Source: Thermodesulfobacteriota bacterium (GTDB lineage Bacteria > Desulfobacterota > WTBG01 > JAGOGO01). From it: a stretch of DNA of 32,000 nt. Where the stretch lies: assembly GCA_026625185.1 (NCBI GenBank), contig CP113000.1, positions 1,155,622-1,187,621 of the forward strand, read 5' to 3'. Below, piece after piece: positions 3,859-17,082 of the stretch. Both the position numbers and the translations under genes were made by a program. The notes beneath the pieces were generated by a model, which was given only the letters and a program-made list of their open reading frames with translations, had not been told where the DNA came from and ran no database searches. Every line of letters begins with the position of its first letter. Position 1 is the stretch's first letter.

Positions 3859-3953
3859 GACATCATAACCCATGAGCGGTAAAAAAGAAATAATATTAAT
3901 GATAAAGATTTTTCTAAAGGAAGGGAAATGCCAACCAATCGCCAACAGAAAAT

Positions 3954-3993
3954 AAAAACACCTTTTGGCAAGAATAGCCGGAAAGGTGTTTTT
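3954..3993. terminator. Bidirectional intrinsic-terminator-like hairpin closing the minus-strand EPS operon
   Basis: AAAAACACCTTT (3954-3965) pairs with AAAGGTGTTTTT (3982-3993). Inner GGC/GCC pairs leave a loop of about 7 nt. T-runs follow on both strands (TATTTTTTT on +, ATTTTCT on -). Confidence 0.55.
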
Positions 3994-4107
3994 ATTTTTT
4001 TGCTTACATTTCTTTGTATAACAATCATTGATAATGTGGGGATTGCTCTCCTGCAGTCCGCAATAAAAGTCAAATCGGCGTGTTTGGGGAACGCTCCCTA
4101 CCAAAAT

Positions 4108-4399
4108 TTACGATTTACGTTTTATCGAGGAGCATATAGCTGCCACTGCCCGGAACAATGCTTTAACGGCCTTTCCGATTACCAGAAACGGGCGAAGGGA
4201 AAATAAAAGCCAGGCAACTTTTTTGGAAACCTGGTAGCGAAGCCGGAGGTAATCAGTGCTGGGGAAATGAGCACCCAGCAGAAAAAGCACTTTATCTTTT
4301 ATGCCGGGAATTCTCATCAGCGTAAGTAGGTTTCCCTTCTGTTCGCTCTCACCTTTAAAATTTATTAAACGCACAAGATTTTTGGGGTAGGAGGAAGCT
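4108..4399 (-). pseudogene. Orphan 3' gene fragment abutting the IS30 element (tail resembles C-termini of 'uncharacterised nucleotidyltransferase'-type EPS-locus proteins)
   Basis: The reading frame is open from the IS boundary (4398) to the stop at 4108 (ASSYPKNLVRLINFKGE...FPSTDYLRLRYQVSKKVAWLLFSLRPF...). Only an internal GTG with no SD is available as a start. The family guess rests on remembered tail motifs only. Confidence 0.4.
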
Positions 4400-4426
4400 T
4401 GGTGAATTCAAATTGCAAGTGCACCA
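4400..4426. repeat. IS30-family terminal inverted repeat (transposase-distal end)
   Basis: TGGTGAATTCAAATTGCAAGTGCACCA. The reverse complement of 5483-5509 matches it at 21/27 positions. Confidence 0.8.
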
Positions 4427-5403
4427 CGAGCTGCATTCCAGAACACTTCATAGGGTGTCCGGTAGTTGAGAGATTTTCTTGGCCGATTATTAAGCCTTTT
4501 AACAGCACGAGAAATATCACGTTCGGTAATTTTTCTCATGTAAGTTCCTTTCGGAAAATACTGCCGCAGTAATCCGTTGGTGTTTTCATTGGCTCCTCGC
4601 TGCCATGCAGCATAAGGATCGGCAAAGTAAATACTGAGTTTGGTTTTTTCCTCAAGTTCTTTAAATTGGGCAAACTCTGTTCCATTATCTACCGTTAAAG
4701 TTTGCCGCATTATTCCAGGAATGCGCCTGAAAATTTGAGTGCTTTTATCTGTCAATGTCGTAGCTTTCTTATTTTCCAGCTTGCCAGCCAAAAGGTAGCG
4801 GCTCTTGCGTTCGACTAACGTCGCGATATAGCCACTGCTTTTTTTGCCTTCGATCGTATCGCCCTCCCAGTCTCCAAATCGTTTTCTCCCTTCCACGATT
4901 TCAGGTCGTTGAGCAATTCTCTTGCGCCCGGCAAGAAACCGCCTTCCCAAACCATACCGTTTCTGGCGCCGTCGCCTTTTCCTCCCCCGCCGCAGGTTTA
5001 GATAAAGCTTGCCATTAACCTTCGCATCCTTATAAATCCAGCGATAAATTGTCTCATGGCACACTCGCATCGTCTCATCATCAGGATAATTAATCCGCAT
5101 ATAATCGCTTATCTCCTCTGGAGACCATTGCAGATTCAGTTTTGTTTTTACATAATCAACAAGGCGCTCGTTGCCCTCCCGACGATAATGCCTGGCCTGA
5201 TGCCGTCGTTTTAGAGCTACCGGATGCGTCCAGTCATACCAATAAACAGTGCAATCATATTCCGGCCCGTTGCGTTTAAGTTCACGACTGACCGTGCTGT
5301 GATCTCGGTTTATCCGGCGGGCAATTTCTCGTTTACTAAATCCAGCCACATTTAAATGGCTGATGACATATCGTTCGTTTTCTGTTAAATGTATATATGA
5401 CAT
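4408..5403 (-). CDS. IS30-family DDE transposase
   Basis: 331 aa. N-terminal HTH (HLTENERYVISHL...REIARRINRDHSTVSRELKRN). DDE blocks WEGDTI, DNGTEF and QRGANENTNGLLRQYFPKG. Confidence 0.93.
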   Translation of the reverse strand: MSYIHLTENERYVISHLNVAGFSKREIARRINRDHSTVSRELKRNGPEYDCTVYWYDWTHPVALKRRHQARHYRREGNERLVDYVKTKLNLQWSPEEISDYMRINYPDDETMRVCHETIYRWIYKDAKVNGKLYLNLRRGRKRRRRQKRYGLGRRFLAGRKRIAQRPEIVEGRKRFGDWEGDTIEGKKSSGYIATLVERKSRYLLAGKLENKKATTLTDKSTQIFRRIPGIMRQTLTVDNGTEFAQFKELEEKTKLSIYFADPYAAWQRGANENTNGLLRQYFPKGTYMRKITERDISRAVKRLNNRPRKSLNYRTPYEVFWNAARGALAI

Positions 5404-5482
5404 GGCAGGCTCTTTCTGGTTGCGAGTTGGTCGTTCTTCTCAACATACCAGAATTCCTGTCATGTCGCATGCTTTTCTCAAA

Positions 5483-5509
5483 TGGTGCACTTTGAAGTTG
5501 ATTCTACCA
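5483..5509. repeat. IS30-family terminal inverted repeat (transposase-proximal end)
   Basis: The reverse complement is TGGTAGAATCAACTTCAAAGTGCACCA. It pairs with 4400-4426. Confidence 0.8.
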
Positions 5510-8110
5510 GTATTTGCTTTTTTTTCGATCTACCTCATTTAAAACAACGCCCATAATAGGAGCGCCGGCCGCCTTAAGAATCTCAACCGCCTTTTTTGCT
5601 TCTTCTGGCTTGGTTACGCCTGCCTTAACTACCAAAATACTGCCATCGGAATATTGACTAAGAACCGGCGCATCAGCCATGAATAACGGCGGGCCATCCA
5701 GAAGAATGTAGTCAAAAATATCTCGGCACATGGAAAGGAGTACTTCAAACCCCCGCGAGGAAATGAGCGGCAAAGGGTTATGGAGAGGAGGGCCGCTGGG
5801 AAGCAAAAAGAGGTTTACTGTTTCAGTATCAACCAAAAGGCCGCTTATCTTTTTTTCTAACCACGGAGCATTTCCTTGGAGCTGAAATTTATCCATAAAA
5901 GACTCGACCACCAAACCGTCTTTTTTTATCTCTCCTTCGGTAAATTCATAAAAACCTTCTTCAGGGGAGAAAAGAAGATTCAGGGTTTCCGAAAGGTGAA
6001 GGGTGAGGAGGTTTTCCATTCTTTCCGGAGAAACCGATCCCATTGACAAAAGCACCGAACCCACCCTTCGGTTCGCGCTTTTGGCTAAATCTAATGCGTC
6101 GTCAAGGCTCTCTTTCTCAATAGCCTTGGTTCTTAAAAGTATTTGACCTAATCTTTTTTCCGGAGGACGATTTTCCCAGCAGAGGTCAACCATATTGCCG
6201 CGATCAAACAAAGCCAAAAAGTCTTTATTGCCCTTGACAATTTTTACCTTTCCGCTTTTGCCCCGGGTAAAGATTATCCTCTGGATATCTCCAAAGGAAA
6301 ATGCGTTGTTCAATATCCCCTTATTTTCTAAAGAAGGAAACTCGCGCAAAAACTCCGTGATCCCCCGGTTTTTTTGAGTGAAGACGTTAGTCAAGGAGGG
6401 TTTTTTGAAATCAGCATCAACTATTGCCACGCGAAATCCTGACTGGGCGAGCATGCTCCCCAAGGCTTTAACCAACGTTGTTTTTCCCACGTTGCCAACC
6501 GGTCCAGTAATAAAAATGGTTTTTAAAGGCTTTCCTAAAGACTGAAAGCGCAAATTGGTGGCCAGAGCCCGCAATGGCTCCGCAAGTTCCCCGCTCAGCT
6601 CTCCCTTGGCAATTGGTTCTTCTTTAGGAACAAGAGAAAGAGTAGGTAGCTGGAGATATCTATCCACATCTTTTTCCTCTTTTATGGAGCGATCCATATA
6701 TTCCAGAAAAAAGGAAAGGCCGATTCCAACGGAAAGACCAACGATAAGAGCAAGAAACATATTCATGGTCGGCCTCGGCTTTATCGGAACAAGAGGGAGC
6801 TGAGCTTCTTCTACCAGCCGCACATCTTCTTGGCCGATCCCTTTTAGAACTTCCATTTCCTTAAAATTGGTGAGCAAGGCCTGATAAAGCTCTTTGTTAG
6901 TTGTTACCTCTCTTTCCAGCATAGCATAACGGAGCTCTTTCCCCGAAAGCGCGAGGTTTTCGTTTTCCTTGTCTTTCATTTGCGAAGCAAGCCGCGTCTC
7001 TTTGCCCCACAGCATGGAGATTTGTTGCCTTAAGGCGGCAATGGCTTTGGCTATCTCGCGCCGAAAGCTTTCCTTAAGCTCTCTTATTTTAGCATTGTTT
7101 TCCACCATTGAGGGGTGTTTTTCTTTGTAAGTCTTCTTTAGCTCCTCACGTTCAATGGTTGCCTTAATAAGATCAGCCCTCAGATCAAAAAGAATTTTGT
7201 TATCTAAAATCGCCGGAGAAAATTCTTCGGTGTTTCCGCCCCGAAGCATCCGCTCGAGCTCCCTAGCTTTCTCTTCCAATCCGCTGGCTTCCACCTTGGT
7301 GGTGAGCAGGTCGCCGCTTAACGACCCGATGTCTTTGGCGGAAATATCTTTTTTCCCTTCGAGCGAAAAAATCCCCTCTTTTTGTTTAAAATCATAAAAA
7401 TTTTGTTCACTCTCTTGAAGCCTTTTCTTCATCTTGGCAATCTCGTCTGAGAAAAAAGAAAGGTAGTTGCGAAACGAATCAAGCCGGCTTTCAGATAAAT
7501 ACTGGAGATAGCTTTTGCAGATTGTGTTGGCAGCATCCCGGCAAAAGACAGGATCAGGATCTACAACATTTACTTCAATGAGTCGGGTATCGCGGATAGG
7601 GACAACCTCTACCTCTCCTTGAAGAATCCCGACCCAGACAGGGTAAGGGTCGTCTTTTTGCGGGTTGGCTTTTGCTTCCGATTTTTCCGCGGAAAAAGAA
7701 AAAAAGGGAAAAGGATATAATAACCCGCTTTTAATTTTTTCAAGGTTTTCCCTAATATTATTCTTAACGGTTGGCTTTTTTTCTTGTTTCTTGGGATCGT
7801 CAAGTGTTAATGCTTTTGCAGAACGGGCAAGAACCGGAAGACTTTTTATCATCATCGAATGGGTTTTAAAAGCCAAGGATTCCGAATAATCACTTTCCCA
7901 ATATCCTCCCCCGGGATTAAAGGTTGGTGGAGCGAGCTTTTGTTCTTTTCCCACTTTTATTCGAGCACTCGCCTGATAGATTGGCTGCACAAGGAAAGTG
8001 CCGATCCCGACGGTGGCAAGAAAGCAAACCACGGTAGCGACAACAAGCCACCTCCTTCTTTTTAGGACTTCCAAATAATCTAAAAGGTGAATTTCTTGTT
8101 CTTCGTTCAT
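5504..8110 (-). CDS. Polysaccharide co-polymerase (Wzz/GumC-like) fused to a BY-kinase/MinD-like P-loop domain that carries a large internal insertion; 3' end formed by the IS
   Basis: Wzz N-terminus (LLDYLEVLKRRRWLVVATVV..) and a long coiled coil. Second TM FLALIVGLSVGIGLSFF. Walker A GPVGNVGKT, A' VAIVDAD and B YILLDGPP. Start chosen at MNEEQE (8110) because the 8200 start would overlap the upstream gene by 68 nt. The last codon and the stop lie inside the IS inverted repeat. Confidence 0.85.
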   Translation of the reverse strand: MNEEQEIHLLDYLEVLKRRRWLVVATVVCFLATVGIGTFLVQPIYQASARIKVGKEQKLAPPTFNPGGGYWESDYSESLAFKTHSMMIKSLPVLARSAKALTLDDPKKQEKKPTVKNNIRENLEKIKSGLLYPFPFFSFSAEKSEAKANPQKDDPYPVWVGILQGEVEVVPIRDTRLIEVNVVDPDPVFCRDAANTICKSYLQYLSESRLDSFRNYLSFFSDEIAKMKKRLQESEQNFYDFKQKEGIFSLEGKKDISAKDIGSLSGDLLTTKVEASGLEEKARELERMLRGGNTEEFSPAILDNKILFDLRADLIKATIEREELKKTYKEKHPSMVENNAKIRELKESFRREIAKAIAALRQQISMLWGKETRLASQMKDKENENLALSGKELRYAMLEREVTTNKELYQALLTNFKEMEVLKGIGQEDVRLVEEAQLPLVPIKPRPTMNMFLALIVGLSVGIGLSFFLEYMDRSIKEEKDVDRYLQLPTLSLVPKEEPIAKGELSGELAEPLRALATNLRFQSLGKPLKTIFITGPVGNVGKTTLVKALGSMLAQSGFRVAIVDADFKKPSLTNVFTQKNRGITEFLREFPSLENKGILNNAFSFGDIQRIIFTRGKSGKVKIVKGNKDFLALFDRGNMVDLCWENRPPEKRLGQILLRTKAIEKESLDDALDLAKSANRRVGSVLLSMGSVSPERMENLLTLHLSETLNLLFSPEEGFYEFTEGEIKKDGLVVESFMDKFQLQGNAPWLEKKISGLLVDTETVNLFLLPSGPPLHNPLPLISSRGFEVLLSMCRDIFDYILLDGPPLFMADAPVLSQYSDGSILVVKAGVTKPEEAKKAVEILKAAGAPIMGVVLNEVDRKKSKYW

Positions 8111-8132
8111 TTTCCCATTTCTGCTAAATTGG

Positions 8133-8720
8133 TTAAAGTCTTGACTCCGGGACATAAATCCGGTCTCCGGGCAGGAGCAAAGGATCGGATTCTTTTCCAT
8201 CCCGTATCTTTTCCAAATTTATTTTCATTACCTGTTCTTTTCCGTCTTTTTTTCGGGTGATGGTTGCCCGGTTAGGAGCTGCAAAAGGGTCAAACCCTCC
8301 AGCCAGAGCACAGGCATTAAGAGCAGTGAGGCCTTCTTGATAATCATAGGCCTTGGGTTCTTTTACTCTGCCCAAAACGTAAATTTTTGAAAGAGCTTGC
8401 TTTTCCCGGTATTCTTTTACCGTTACATTAACAACCGGATCAACAAAGTAATCTTGTGCGAGCGCTTCTCTTACTTTTTTAGAAAAATCACTCAGGGAGA
8501 GATTAGAAGCCGGCACATCACCAAGAAAAGGAACGGAAACTATTCCTTCCCTGGAAACCGTTAGCGTGGATTTATTTTGCTCCTTGCCGCCGGCGAAAAT
8601 ATTCAAGATTAGGACATCTCCTGGGCCAATCTTATATACTTCATCGCAGAGGCCCAGAGAAGAGAAAAGATGAATTAAGCAAAAAATGAAAAACACAAAA
8701 CTGGCGTTTAATTTCCCCAA
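8133..8720 (-). CDS. Polysaccharide export protein (Wza-like; Poly_export + SLBB-type domains)
   Basis: 195 aa with a signal peptide. YKIGPGDVLILNIF... and C-terminal LLPGDRIYVPE are typical of Wza/EpsE-type periplasmic/OM export proteins. TTG start overlaps the upstream gene end. Confidence 0.85.
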   Translation of the reverse strand: MGKLNASFVFFIFCLIHLFSSLGLCDEVYKIGPGDVLILNIFAGGKEQNKSTLTVSREGIVSVPFLGDVPASNLSLSDFSKKVREALAQDYFVDPVVNVTVKEYREKQALSKIYVLGRVKEPKAYDYQEGLTALNACALAGGFDPFAAPNRATITRKKDGKEQVMKINLEKIRDGKESDPLLLPGDRIYVPESRL

Positions 8721-10011
8721 AAGCTTCCGACTCCCTTAATAGACAAAAAAACACGGTTCTCGTTATAGTCACTGTGTTTCAGGTTCGATTCCCTCTGAAT
8801 CCGGGTGTAACCAATGGGGAAAATGCACCACCTTTGAAATGCATATTCGATAAAACAGTTTCCTCCATAGAGCGAATCATCCCTTTTCTCCCACTTCCCG
8901 CTTTCGGTTAAACCCTTCTCTTGTTCATAGGTAAAATTTTCAAAAAAAGCAGAGACACCAATTCTGGTTTTGGGAAAAGGCTGGCAAGAGTAATCCAAAG
9001 CCGCCAGGTCAACAAAGTAGTAAGAATTACCATTGCCGAAATCAGCAGGAAAATGGTTATAAGAGAGCTCAGCCTGGCTTTTGGGGGTTTTCCTCACTAG
9101 TTTTGTGGTTCCCAAAACTCTGGTTACATCCCCTGCCACCCCCTTGATTTGTTTATCAAAAAATTTTTTTTGAGCGCCGAATGCGAGTTCCAAACGGTAG
9201 AGAGGTGTAAGCTGGCGGGTAACGCCAAAGAGTCCCTGGGATGAGTGGTAATCTGAAGACCACTGAAAATTTCGGCTTGTTTCTCGAAAATCAAAGAAAA
9301 CGTTGGTTCTAAAGTTTATTCGATAGCCCAAGGTTAAATTTCCTGAATAGGCATTTGAATCTTAATCATCAGGGTTAAAAGCGTCCAGATAATGGAGCCG
9401 GTCGTAACGGAATCTTAAACTGATTGAAACTCTGTCAGATAATTGTTTTTCTACATACGGAGAGAACCAGTTGCGATAGTATTTTGCTGCAGAAATCCGA
9501 TCAGTGCCAAGCCACATATCTGTTGGCCTCCGGGAAAGAATGAAAAGTTCTTCCATTCCCACCTTGAGCGTATCATTAATTAACCTTTTTCCATAAAAGC
9601 TTAGATTGTGACCTACATAGTCCAAGTCTTTCCGGTCACGCCCAGAAGCAGGATCAAGGTTGGAATACCGTGTAACCGGCATCAAGTAGTCCAAAGAGGC
9701 AGTATACCTCGGCCCGCTTGAATTAAATTGGATTCTCGGGGTAATGAAGGTAATGAGGTCCCGGCTCTGATTTTTTTCCGTACAAAAGATATTGTCGTCG
9801 TATTCTTCTGTCAGGGCGATAGAAAGCGAAAGAGGAACCTTTCGATCTACCTTGAACTCTCTTTCAAAAAAATTACCCCAATAACCTTGTTCCATTGGTT
9901 TATAAACCGTTGCCCAAAGGCTTTGCAGATCCTCAAGGCTTAGATCAAAAGCGCTTGCTTTTGAAACTATTAATAGGAGGGAGACGATAAGAAAAAAGAG
10001 TTTTTTATCAT
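8708..10011 (-). pseudogene. EPS-locus outer-membrane beta-barrel protein (OmpL-like 'bbp2' type), disrupted twice as assembled
   Basis: ORFs 9362-9895 and 8708-9331 are in the same frame, separated by a single TAA (9362-9364). The frame stays open upstream to 10009 and encodes KKLFFLIVSLLLIVSKASA. The ATG at 10011-10009 is one base out of frame across an A6 run. Alternating beta-strand-like sequence, an EEYDDNIF block and an aromatic C-terminus are present. Confidence 0.65.
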
Positions 10012-15481: not shown

Positions 15482-16303
15482 ATGACATATCGGGCTGAGA
15501 CGAAGAATATGGCGCTTTTTTGCGATTTCGAGAACATCGCTTTGGGTGTTCGGGACGCAAACTACGCTCAATTCGACATTGGCAAGGTGATCGAGCGGCT
15601 CCTGCTCAAAGGAAATATTGTCGTCAAGAAGGCTTACTGCGATTGGGACCGCTACAAAGACCTCAAGTCGGCGATGCATGAGGCGTCTTTTGAGTTGATC
15701 GAGATCCCCCACGTGCGACAGTCGGGCAAGAACTCCGCTGATATTCGCATGGTGGTGGATGCGCTCGACCTTTGTTACACAAAAGAACACCTGGATACCT
15801 TCGTGATCTTCAGCGGCGACTCCGATTTTGCCCCCCTCGTCAGCAAGCTGCGCGAGAACAACAAAATCGTAATCGGGGTCGGCGTCAAAAATTCGACGTC
15901 GGACTTGTTGATCGCGAACTGCGATGAATTTATCTATTACGATGACCTGGTGCACCGCCGGCCGCCCCGCAAGAAGGGTGGCGGCCGAGGAATGAGTCGC
16001 AAGCCTCCACGGGGGCTGATTGTCAAAGCCGCCACGCCCGCCGGGGACAGGAAGCAGGAGGCGTGGGACCTGATCGTCGAGACCTATGAGGCTTTGGTTG
16101 AAGAACGCGGCGAGGGAGAGAAGATCTGGGGTTCCATGATCAAGCAAACCCTGAAACGGCGAAAACCTGGTTTCAGCGAGTCTTACTACGGCTTCAGGTC
16201 TTTCAGTCAGCTATTGGAGGAGGCGGAAGAGCGCGGGATACTTGAGCTGGAGCCTGAAGAGAAGTCGGGTGGTTTTATCATCAAAAGTTGTCATGCGGTT
16301 TAA
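15482..16303 (+). CDS. NYN-domain (LabA-like) ribonuclease-fold protein with a C-terminal OST-HTH/LOTUS domain
   Basis: 273 aa. ALFCDFENI, KAYCDW, GKNSADIRMVVDALDL and VIFSGDSDFAPLVSKLRENNKIVIGVG form the NYN part. A basic linker follows, then WGSMIKQTLKRRKPGFSESYYGFRSFSQLLEEAEERGILEL forms the OST-HTH part. Confidence 0.9.
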   Translation: MTYRAETKNMALFCDFENIALGVRDANYAQFDIGKVIERLLLKGNIVVKKAYCDWDRYKDLKSAMHEASFELIEIPHVRQSGKNSADIRMVVDALDLCYTKEHLDTFVIFSGDSDFAPLVSKLRENNKIVIGVGVKNSTSDLLIANCDEFIYYDDLVHRRPPRKKGGGRGMSRKPPRGLIVKAATPAGDRKQEAWDLIVETYEALVEERGEGEKIWGSMIKQTLKRRKPGFSESYYGFRSFSQLLEEAEERGILELEPEEKSGGFIIKSCHAV

Positions 16304-16344
16304 TACCAAGGCGCCTCCATTTGTATGCCTTTGTTGTCTCCTCG

Positions 16345-17082
16345 TCATACTCCTCGAGGTACTAAAATGTACGCCTGCGTCGATTCCTCGTCGTCGCCGT
16401 CGTTCAGTTCAGGAATAACTAGGTTGGTTAGTTCCGCCCAAATATTGAGTCGTTTCATGCAGCGAATCGATTCCAGTACTGCTTCCAAATGGCCGTGGCA
16501 AATGTTTTTGTAGAAGTCTTCCCGAAAAGATTTGAGGTCCACATCGCACGCGTCCAGAAAAGGAGCGATGGTTTCAATGGCTTCCATGGTCATGTAGCCA
16601 TTGGTAACAAAAACATTAAAAAGGCCTTCTTTCTTCCCCAATTTAGAAATATCGTAGGCATACTCAAAAAAGATAGTCGGTTCGGTATAGGTATAGGATG
16701 TGCTCCGACACCCGTTTGCCTTGGCTTGCCGGACCACCTCTTCGGGAAGGAGTTTATCGCCGGGTAGTCTCTGGTCTTTTCTTTTTGATGTCTGGGAAAT
16801 CTGCCAGTTCTGGCAAAAGTCGCAATGAAAGTTGCATCCTGGTGTGGCGATGGAAAAGGACGTGGTGCCAGGCAAAAAGTGATAGAGCGGTTTTTTTTCG
16901 ATGGGATCGATGTTGGCGGCGATCACTTCTCCGTAAGCATGGGTATATAACTTTCCGGCCTGGTTCTGTCTCATCCCGCAGATTTCGAACTCTGTATCGG
17001 CGATCCGGCAGTGATGATTACCCAAACAACAGGCAACCTTTTGGTCTTACAACTCTTTATAAAGCATGGCTTCTTGCATCAT
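16345..17082 (-). pseudogene. AmmeMemoRadiSam-system-type radical SAM enzyme (AmrS-like), with an in-frame stop and a truncated 3' end
   Basis: AAGGAG is followed 8 nt later by ATG at 17082. MMQEAMLYKEL-TAA(17047-17049)-DQKVACCLGNHHCRI... is all in one frame. Radical SAM box GCNFHCDFCQNW and DPIEKKPLYHF are present. The protein ends at LNDGDDEE.., about 100 aa short of the roughly 330 aa I recall for this family. Confidence 0.75.

Follow-up and report, generated by a model that had tools for sequence, protein, structure and literature searches.

The gene examined here encodes a polysaccharide co-polymerase of the PCP-2a type fused to a domain resembling the bacterial tyrosine kinases (BY-kinases), and the P-loop fold of that kinase domain is interrupted by a second, nested domain. 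The gene lies on the minus strand of a 32,000-nucleotide (nt) stretch of a Thermodesulfobacteriota bacterium genome (GenBank assembly GCA_026625185.1, contig CP113000.1, positions 1,155,622 to 1,187,621), which we refer to as the window; features are listed with their coordinates in Table 1. The maximal open reading frame (ORF) spans nt 5504–8200 and encodes 898 residues, and residue numbers given here follow this ORF. Because all homologues and the 868-residue NCBI product begin at the position of Met31 (nt 8110), this is probably the real start of the gene, in which case the true residue numbers are 30 lower. The 898-residue ORF and the upstream Poly_export gene share 68 nt; starting at Met31 leaves a gap of 22 nt, as is seen in a related contig.

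The periplasmic portion of the co-polymerase is marked by Pfam matches to Wzz (residues 36–125) and GNVR (residues 427–498), both above their cut-offs. The BY-kinase domain is recognized by the NCBIfam model TIGR01007 (125.7 bits versus a cut-off of 108), and the Pfam P-loop matches (CbiA/AAA_31/ParA) are split into two segments, residues 560–613 and 855–893. The Walker A GK[ST], Walker A' and Walker B hhhhDxPP signatures are all present, at the positions given in the original prediction made for this DNA from its sequence alone. The Walker A' segment reads VAIVDADFKKP, with a Lys replacing the Arg of the hhhhDxDxR signature. An AlphaFold model of residues 530–898, based on a 34-sequence alignment, has a predicted local distance difference test score (pLDDT) of 88 and a predicted template modelling score (pTM) of 0.84. 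When the inserted segment is skipped, the P-loop part of this model matches CapAB, Wzc, Etk, VpsO and BceF (Foldseek E ~4e-11, target TM-score (TMt) 0.7–0.8), with PDB entries 2VED, 4JLV and 3LA6 among the matches to the kinase fold (E 4e-11).

Table 1. Features of the kinase gene and its surroundings (positions are those of the window; residues are those of the 898-residue ORF)
Feature	Residues	Position	Strand	Basis
PCP-2a-type polysaccharide co-polymerase fused to BY-kinase-like domain		5504..8110	(-)	Pfam, NCBIfam
Walker A, GPVGNVGKT	566-574	6479..6505	(-)	Motif position in translation
Walker A', VAIVDAD	591-597	6410..6430	(-)	Motif position in translation
Nested insertion, PATAN/DUF4388 domain including alpha-clip	623-788	5837..6334	(-)	Alignment to CapAB, PF14332, AlphaFold model
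N-terminal half of PATAN core: strand, helix, three-stranded sheet	627-675	6176..6322	(-)	AlphaFold secondary structure, Pfam alignment
Alpha-clip, MshEN_N-type four-helix bundle	683-735	5996..6154	(-)	NF053729, family profile, Foldseek
C-terminal half of PATAN core: end of helix 4, strand GFYEFTE, two helices	736-788	5837..5995	(-)	AlphaFold models
Walker B, YILLDGPP	831-838	5687..5710	(-)	Motif position in translation
Poly_export/SLBB (Wza-like) outer-membrane export protein, directly upstream, same operon		8133..8720	(-)	Domain match, conserved order
BBP2_2 beta-barrel porin gene of the exopolysaccharide module		8717..10000	(-)	In-frame TAA at 9362-9364
IS30-family element, 1110 bp, 27-nt imperfect terminal inverted repeats		4400..5509	(-)	Inverted repeats, HTH_38 and rve
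3' fragment of NTP_transf_5 gene abutting the IS30 end		4162..4399	(-)	tblastn to residues 279-362 of the 378-residue L042 protein, E 1e-16

The inserted segment is most readily seen in the spacing of the Walker motifs. In the window protein, 240 residues separate the aspartates of Walker A' and Walker B, and in 62 insert-bearing relatives 240–254 residues (median 248) do so, whereas the corresponding value is 77–101 residues (median 81) in nearly all of 179 BY-kinases that have no insert. The unusually long gap had been noted in the original prediction, which put it at about 230 residues. Alignment with canonical BY-kinases places the approximately 170 extra residues between the ‘GLTxxL’ helix that follows Walker A' and the strand leading to the ‘LPSG’ turn, and comparison with Staphylococcus aureus CapAB (3BFV) shows a clean insertion of 166 residues in place of a 5-residue loop (chain residues 147–151); an insertion inside the P-loop domain had been proposed. 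We regard it as all but certain that a PATAN unit is nested in a short surface loop behind the helix that follows Walker A' of the BY-kinase domain.

The insert is identified by two models. Pfam DUF4388 (PF14332) matches residues 633–759 with E 3e-11 and 43.8 bits in the full protein, and with E 4e-13 and 49.9 bits in the isolated insert (cut-off 25). The NCBIfam model NF053729 (‘c-di-GMP_motif, MshE-related’) matches residues 683–732 with E 4.8e-10 and 39.1 bits against a cut-off of 38, rising to 42.1 bits for the isolated insert, and NCBIfam models of NfrB-type glycosyltransferases match the same 50 residues. The segment recognized by NF053729 contains two 24-residue motifs (residues 683–706 and 712–735) separated by the 5-residue spacer KSANR (residues 707–711), in agreement with the tandem MshEN-type repeats and the coordinates described earlier. 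The DUF4388-like character of the flanking sequence was likewise recognized in the original prediction, but there it was treated as a module separate from the repeats; the two belong to a single known unit, the PATAN (DUF4388/PatA_N) domain with its alpha-clip. In the account of Makarova et al. (2006) given in bioRxiv 10.1101/2021.06.11.447907, many PATAN domains carry an alpha-clip of two helix hairpins inserted in an alpha/beta core, and repeats of the same type are found N-terminally in the ATPases of type II secretion and type IV pili. This N-terminal element of the secretion and pilus ATPases is the MshEN_N receptor for cyclic di-GMP (c-di-GMP), and the alpha-clip of the present protein is a four-helix bundle of the MshEN_N type, built from two 24-residue motifs.

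The predicted structure is in accord with this description. Within the interrupted P-loop fold, the order of elements in the model is strand, helix and three-stranded sheet, next four helices, and finally a strand with two helices. The N-terminal half of the PATAN core is followed by a conserved WxNRP linker (residues 675–679), and the bundle helices span residues 684–690, 696–709, 713–720 and 725–743. Conserved residues of the C-terminal half include Gly749, Phe751 and Phe753. In a model of the insert alone (pLDDT 78), the bundle superposes on MshE in complex with c-di-GMP (5HTL), the top PDB match, over 55 columns with an rmsd (root-mean-square deviation) of 1.3 Å, 34% identity and a Foldseek probability of 1.0. 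The next match is the GSPII-B domain of PilF with bound c-di-GMP (8PFA; rmsd 1.0 Å). The PATAN core has no convincing PDB relative by Foldseek, where GyrB and others were returned only with low probability and high rmsd.

The nested architecture is not confined to the window. An exhaustive HMMER search with residues 540–898 against 1.84 billion protein representatives returned 50,981 matches. Among the best 150 representatives, about 70 match in one stretch across the insert, and the remainder match in two stretches like canonical kinases. At least 78 clusters bear the insert, a lower bound, as further members were still being found at the cut-off. Among exopolysaccharide (EPS) co-polymerases and kinases the layout is thus not unique to the window protein. 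The family occurs in two forms, one fused to the co-polymerase (860–950 residues) and one a stand-alone kinase (390–420 residues). PF14332 matches all 32 family members tested and NF053729 all 25 inserts tested (best E 1.6e-18), and a profile built from the inserts finds the PDB sequences of PilF (E 1.6e-26), PilB (E 1.8e-12) and residues 7–62 of MshE (5HTL; E 4.6e-12). The family consensus, RLGxxLLxxGxIxxxQLxxALxxQ and [PR]LGxILLxLGY[VI]xxxxLxxxLxLQ joined by a 5-residue spacer, is canonical for both motifs. The long Walker A'–B spacing is thus normal for the subfamily, an outcome that had been expected to speak against an insertion, yet the insertion stands, and its conservation in a subfamily of at least 78 clusters shows that it is selected.

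Taxa were traced with a tight 8-sequence alignment of the insert, which covers one subgroup of the family, so the resulting list is incomplete. This subgroup includes Ca. Brocadia, Kuenenia, Jettenia, Scalindua, Anammoxibacter and Loosdrechtia, together with Desulfosarcina variabilis (complete genome), Desulfatitalea, Desulfosudis, and metagenome-assembled genomes (MAGs) of Nitrospirae and Deferribacteres. The motifs are near-canonical in Brocadia, Kuenenia, Jettenia, Scalindua and Desulfosarcina variabilis. There is very little doubt, in our view, that the three-level nesting, with the clip in PATAN and PATAN in the BY-kinase, defines a conserved EPS-locus subfamily of anammox Planctomycetota, Desulfobacterota, Nitrospirota and others.

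The kinase signatures are well preserved across the family. Walker A GK[ST] is found in 73 of 73 aligned members, and the Walker B residues corresponding to Asp835 and Pro838 in 76 of 76. At the position of Asp595 in Walker A', 69 of 76 members have Asp and the other 7 Glu, and Asp597 is kept in 75 of 76. A tail with at least three tyrosines is present in 56 of 78 members, and some members are tail-less. With catalytic Walker residues that are essentially invariant and a Tyr tail that is mostly kept, the family members are predicted from sequence to be active kinases. Pseudokinases of the EcpK/HfsB type were considered as an identity for the family and rejected, the Walker residues being invariant. 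In the subclade of the window protein, kinase residues that the family otherwise keeps have changed (residues 541–547 and 566–574, nt 6479–6580). The residue preceding the GK of Walker A is Glu in 67 of 73 family members and Val (Val571) in this subclade, in which the third Arg of ExxRxxR is Ala. In the ExxRxxR motif that precedes Walker A, the window protein has Glu541 and Arg544 but Ala547 at the third position; across 78 members, the Glu is kept in 49, the first Arg in 40 and the last in 23, and this last Arg is weakly conserved across the family.

Four members (P0077, P0080, P0096 and P0221, the last being L045 9001-11634) keep the PATAN core and are missing exactly the 53-residue clip, which shortens their Walker A'–B spacing to 192–195 residues versus about 248. 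One further member, P0065, has a degenerate clip and a spacing of 231. The clip-less proteins are natural ‘sensor-less’ controls.

The key ligand residues of MshEN motifs are R1, L2, G3, G10, L17, L21 and Q24 (PMC5013675). The window protein keeps R1 and G3 of both motifs, the hydrophobic core and the spacing. Its departures, all of them correctly listed in the original prediction, are G10K (Lys692, at the first turn Gly) and Q24A (Ala706) in repeat 1, and L2V, L17M and Q24H (His735) in repeat 2. The two lost Gln side chains are those that hydrogen-bond the ribose-phosphate of the ligand. By count, the window protein satisfies 18 of 22 positions of the relaxed motif of Wang 2016 and 9 of 14 strict key residues, the seven listed above in both motifs. 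Most other family members have the strict key ligand residues, and the exposed contact positions are kept in most of them (Arg or Lys at 1, Gly at 3, Gln or Asn at 24). The Ala/His pair at position 24 is limited to the clade of the window protein (7 of 74 members, 59–100% identity), which also varies at G10 of both repeats.

We consider physiological binding of c-di-GMP likely for members with canonical motifs, such as those of Brocadia or Desulfosarcina, and rather unlikely for the window copy. It is for the latter, with both ligand-contacting Gln residues replaced, that sensing is least probable.

The surroundings of the gene identify it as part of an EPS export module. In five independent relatives the gene order is small hypothetical, BBP2_2 porin, Poly_export and kinase gene, followed downstream by either a Wzy_C and TPR protein or a priming sugar transferase and sugar-modification genes. 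The recurrence of this order makes the assignment to EPS export secure. In the window, the kinase gene is joined at its 3' end to the insertion sequence (IS) element of the IS30 family, whose transposase is encoded at 4408–5403 and of which the window has one copy. The terminal inverted repeat of the element supplies the last kinase codon, TGG, and the stop codon TAG (...AAA TAC TGG TAG). The window protein accordingly ends ...KKSKYW*, whereas a homologue with 86% identity runs on KKSKYYYYYFGKNYG; the C-terminal tyrosine-rich cluster is absent from the window protein, severed by IS30. Beyond the other end of the element lies not the remainder of the kinase gene but a fragment of an NTP_transf_5 gene, which in a relative is found about 5.5 kb farther downstream, with Wzy_C, TPR and radical-SAM genes coming before it. 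None of these Wzy_C, TPR and radical-SAM genes of the relatives is present in the window. The arrangement implies an IS30-associated deletion of about 5–6 kb, in which the Tyr tail was lost together with the genes for Wzy_C, TPR and radical-SAM/SPASM proteins.

In Wzc, the Tyr tail occupies the neighbouring subunit's active site and makes up roughly one third of the interface of the octamer (PMC8285477). With no tail, and with its Wzy_C partner missing from the locus, the window protein probably does not function. The interruption of the BBP2_2 porin gene is either a pseudogene lesion or a sequencing error. Taken with the degenerate sensor and the loss of the Tyr tail, Wzy_C and TPR, the stop codon in the porin gene points to a locus in decay and to an inactive protein, a conclusion that we hold with good confidence. 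Interest in the system lies mainly at the level of the family, of which the window locus is a decaying example.

For members with canonical motifs, a regulatory role of the insert can be outlined. The Wzc octamer is held by insertion of the Tyr tail into the active site of a neighbour and dissociates on phosphorylation. BY-kinase/co-polymerases go through a cycle in which the unphosphorylated octamer supports polymerization and export, trans-autophosphorylation dissociates it, and dephosphorylation resets it (PMC8285477). In our proposal, the bundle of a canonical member would bind c-di-GMP in the manner of MshE and the GSPII-B domain of PilF, and binding would change where the PATAN module sits, or how rigid it is, next to the switch-I-like Walker A' region. 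As the bundle rigidifies with ligand bound, the module could bias ATP turnover or ring assembly, which would shift the cycle of octamer formation, autophosphorylation and dissociation on which Wzx/Wzy-dependent polymerization and export depend. High c-di-GMP would in this way affect EPS export at the post-translational level. Alternatively, since PATAN cores are known to bind proteins, the core may recruit a partner in a ligand-dependent way. We assign a probability of about 0.6 to the explanation as a whole, which blends the architecture, the family, the decay of the window copy and the gating by c-di-GMP. Its parts differ: that canonical members have a c-di-GMP-gated mechanism is slightly below an even chance, and for direct control of the BY-kinase/co-polymerase's octamer assembly or autophosphorylation by c-di-GMP bound to the nested bundle, a tentative proposal, the odds are somewhat short of even.

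Several observations weigh against sensing of c-di-GMP by the nested bundle. The Pfam model T2SSE_N/GspE_N does not match the insert even at E 10, so the profile searches proposed in the original prediction succeeded for DUF4388 and for NF053729, each above its cut-off, and not for T2SSE_N; the basis for calling the bundle MshEN is NCBIfam together with the fold and the profile search of the PDB. The model has no MshEN_C subdomain, the bundle running straight back into the PATAN core. The relaxed motif of Wang 2016 is complete in both repeats in only 8 of 74 members. In PilF GSPII-B, single Gln-to-Glu changes lower affinity 77- to 158-fold, and binding is lost when both are made (PMC11731258). 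The GSPII-A domain of PilF, with His and Arg at the Gln positions, does not bind, and restoring the consensus fails to rescue binding because helix capping and inter-subdomain contacts block the site; the motif alone is thus insufficient (PMC12002112). Both ends of the nested bundle are tethered to the PATAN core; in MshE these ends adjoin the place where the ligand sits, which might therefore be blocked here. A window-wide domain scan found no GGDEF, EAL or HD-GYP gene. Finally, the four clip-less members retain the PATAN core, which argues that the core has a role independent of the clip. To be set beside these points, MshEN_N by itself binds c-di-GMP with a dissociation constant (KD) of ~0.35 uM (PMC5013675).

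The same clip-less members favour the principal competing explanation. The nested PATAN might be a protein–protein interaction or localization module that senses no nucleotide, with the clip serving as a structural ‘landing pad’, and the partner drawn to the kinase ring might be a phosphatase, a glycosyltransferase, a Wzy-type polymerase or a polar landmark. The PATAN domains of PixE- and PixG-type regulators do act by binding PilB1 and PilC (bioRxiv 10.1101/2021.06.11.447907; PMC9090330), and in the clade of the window protein neither Gln contact is left. The solvent-exposed ligand contacts that most members conserve would, however, be superfluous in a purely structural bundle, and all 25 inserts pass the curated c-di-GMP_motif model. 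We consider this explanation unlikely, although it is not exclusive of sensing, since partner binding could itself be ligand-gated. In a further reading, the bundle binds something else, another cyclic dinucleotide or another phosphorylated molecule, above all in the clade with Ala and His at position 24. Because this pair is fixed across the 7 members of the clade, it resembles a variant that has been kept more than it does decay at random. Every characterized MshEN or GSPII domain that binds anything binds c-di-GMP, however (PMC5013675, PMC11731258), the clade varies at both G10 positions as well, and no positive evidence favours a different ligand, which makes this a very improbable reading. 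An artefact, such as a chimeric assembly, a fusion called in error or motifs matched by chance in a linker of low complexity, would have been a natural suspicion for a window that derives from a MAG and a gene adjoined by an IS element. The family survey disposes of it: the same uninterrupted architecture recurs in at least 78 clusters from independent samples, including the complete genomes of Desulfosarcina variabilis and Ca. Brocadia pituitae, the hidden Markov model (HMM) E-values range from 1e-10 to 1e-13, the insert has a confident predicted fold, and the IS lies outside it.

The insert-bearing proteins combine features of several known systems. Like Wzc, Etk, CapB and VpsO, the window protein has a Wzz and GNVR periplasmic part, two transmembrane segments and a P-loop with Walker A, A' and B, and it is encoded in an EPS locus beside a Wza-like exporter; its homologues also have the Tyr-rich tail. 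It differs in having a 166-residue domain where CapB has a 5-residue loop and in being without the Tyr tail, and in its family the third Arg of ExxRxxR is poorly retained. The bundle shares with MshEN_N of Vibrio cholerae MshE and GSPII-B of Thermus thermophilus PilF the two 24-residue motifs, the 5-residue spacer, the RLG starts, the LxxxL ends and the four-helix fold. Here it is embedded in another domain, without MshEN_C, rather than placed at the N-terminus of a secretion ATPase, and in the window copy G10 is Lys and the Q24 positions are Ala and His. The PATAN-REC regulators of the PatA type (PatA, PixE, PixG, LsiR) contain the same PATAN/DUF4388 domain (PF14332) with the clip at the same place, but there PATAN is N-terminal to a receiver domain rather than inside a P-loop kinase, and their known partners are type IV pilus motor proteins, not EPS machinery.

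A polysaccharide-secretion enzyme with an MshEN-type receptor is already known in NfrB, a glycosyltransferase activated by c-di-GMP through a C-terminal MshEN domain. NfrB is a synthase-dependent enzyme with a terminal fusion, whereas the window protein is a regulator of the Wzx/Wzy-type pathway with a nested one. EcpK and HfsB are, like the present proteins, non-canonical relatives of the BY-kinases, and the tail-less window copy and some tail-less family members could behave likewise; these pseudokinases have no Walker residues, whereas the insert-bearing family keeps them. EcpK and HfsB act on the co-polymerase without Tyr phosphorylation (PMC12004946).

None of the components described here is new, and PF14332 is already annotated on these proteins in databases. 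Full-text literature searches found no paper joining PATAN, DUF4388 or MshEN with BY-kinases, and none on c-di-GMP binding by a BY-kinase. Post-translational control by c-di-GMP is familiar from synthase-dependent secretion, through BcsA and Alg44 (both by PilZ domains), PelD, PgaCD and NfrB (MshEN); for Wzx/Wzy-dependent pathways, the control that is known is mostly transcriptional. The family is concentrated in anammox bacteria and Desulfobacterota, groups in which aggregation and EPS production are of practical and ecological importance. The on/off cycle of the Wzx/Wzy pathway is run by the BY-kinase/co-polymerase (PMC8285477). A receptor-type domain in the kinase itself would be a direct c-di-GMP route to Wzx/Wzy control. 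If the proposal is correct, it would be the first case in which c-di-GMP switches the master regulator of a Wzx/Wzy-dependent polysaccharide pathway post-translationally, operating in granule- and biofilm-forming anammox and sulfate-reducing bacteria, and PATAN domains would gain a role beyond pilus and heterocyst regulation. As the family includes complete genomes (Desulfosarcina variabilis and Ca. Brocadia pituitae), the hypothesis is directly testable with purified domains.

Some further features of the locus and its relatives were observed. Radical-SAM/SPASM, PqqD-like and NTP_transf_5 genes recur beside the EPS module in several relatives (L042 12109-15753; L043 13438-17107; L045 4682-5917 and 16315-17559) and may point to an associated role in peptide modification or as a nucleotidyltransferase. 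Between the convergent NYN and radical-SAM genes of the window, 62 nt at 16299–16360 are 89% identical to an intergenic segment of a related MAG (L001 364-425); this stretch has no tRNA or Rfam match, and the window as a whole contains no tRNAs or Rfam elements. Between the NTP_transf_5 fragment and ComEC, positions 3949–3998 hold an inverted repeat with perfect arms of 17 nt (AAAATAAAAACACCTTT / AAAGGTGTTTTTATTTT) around a loop of 16 nt; it looks like a bidirectional terminator.

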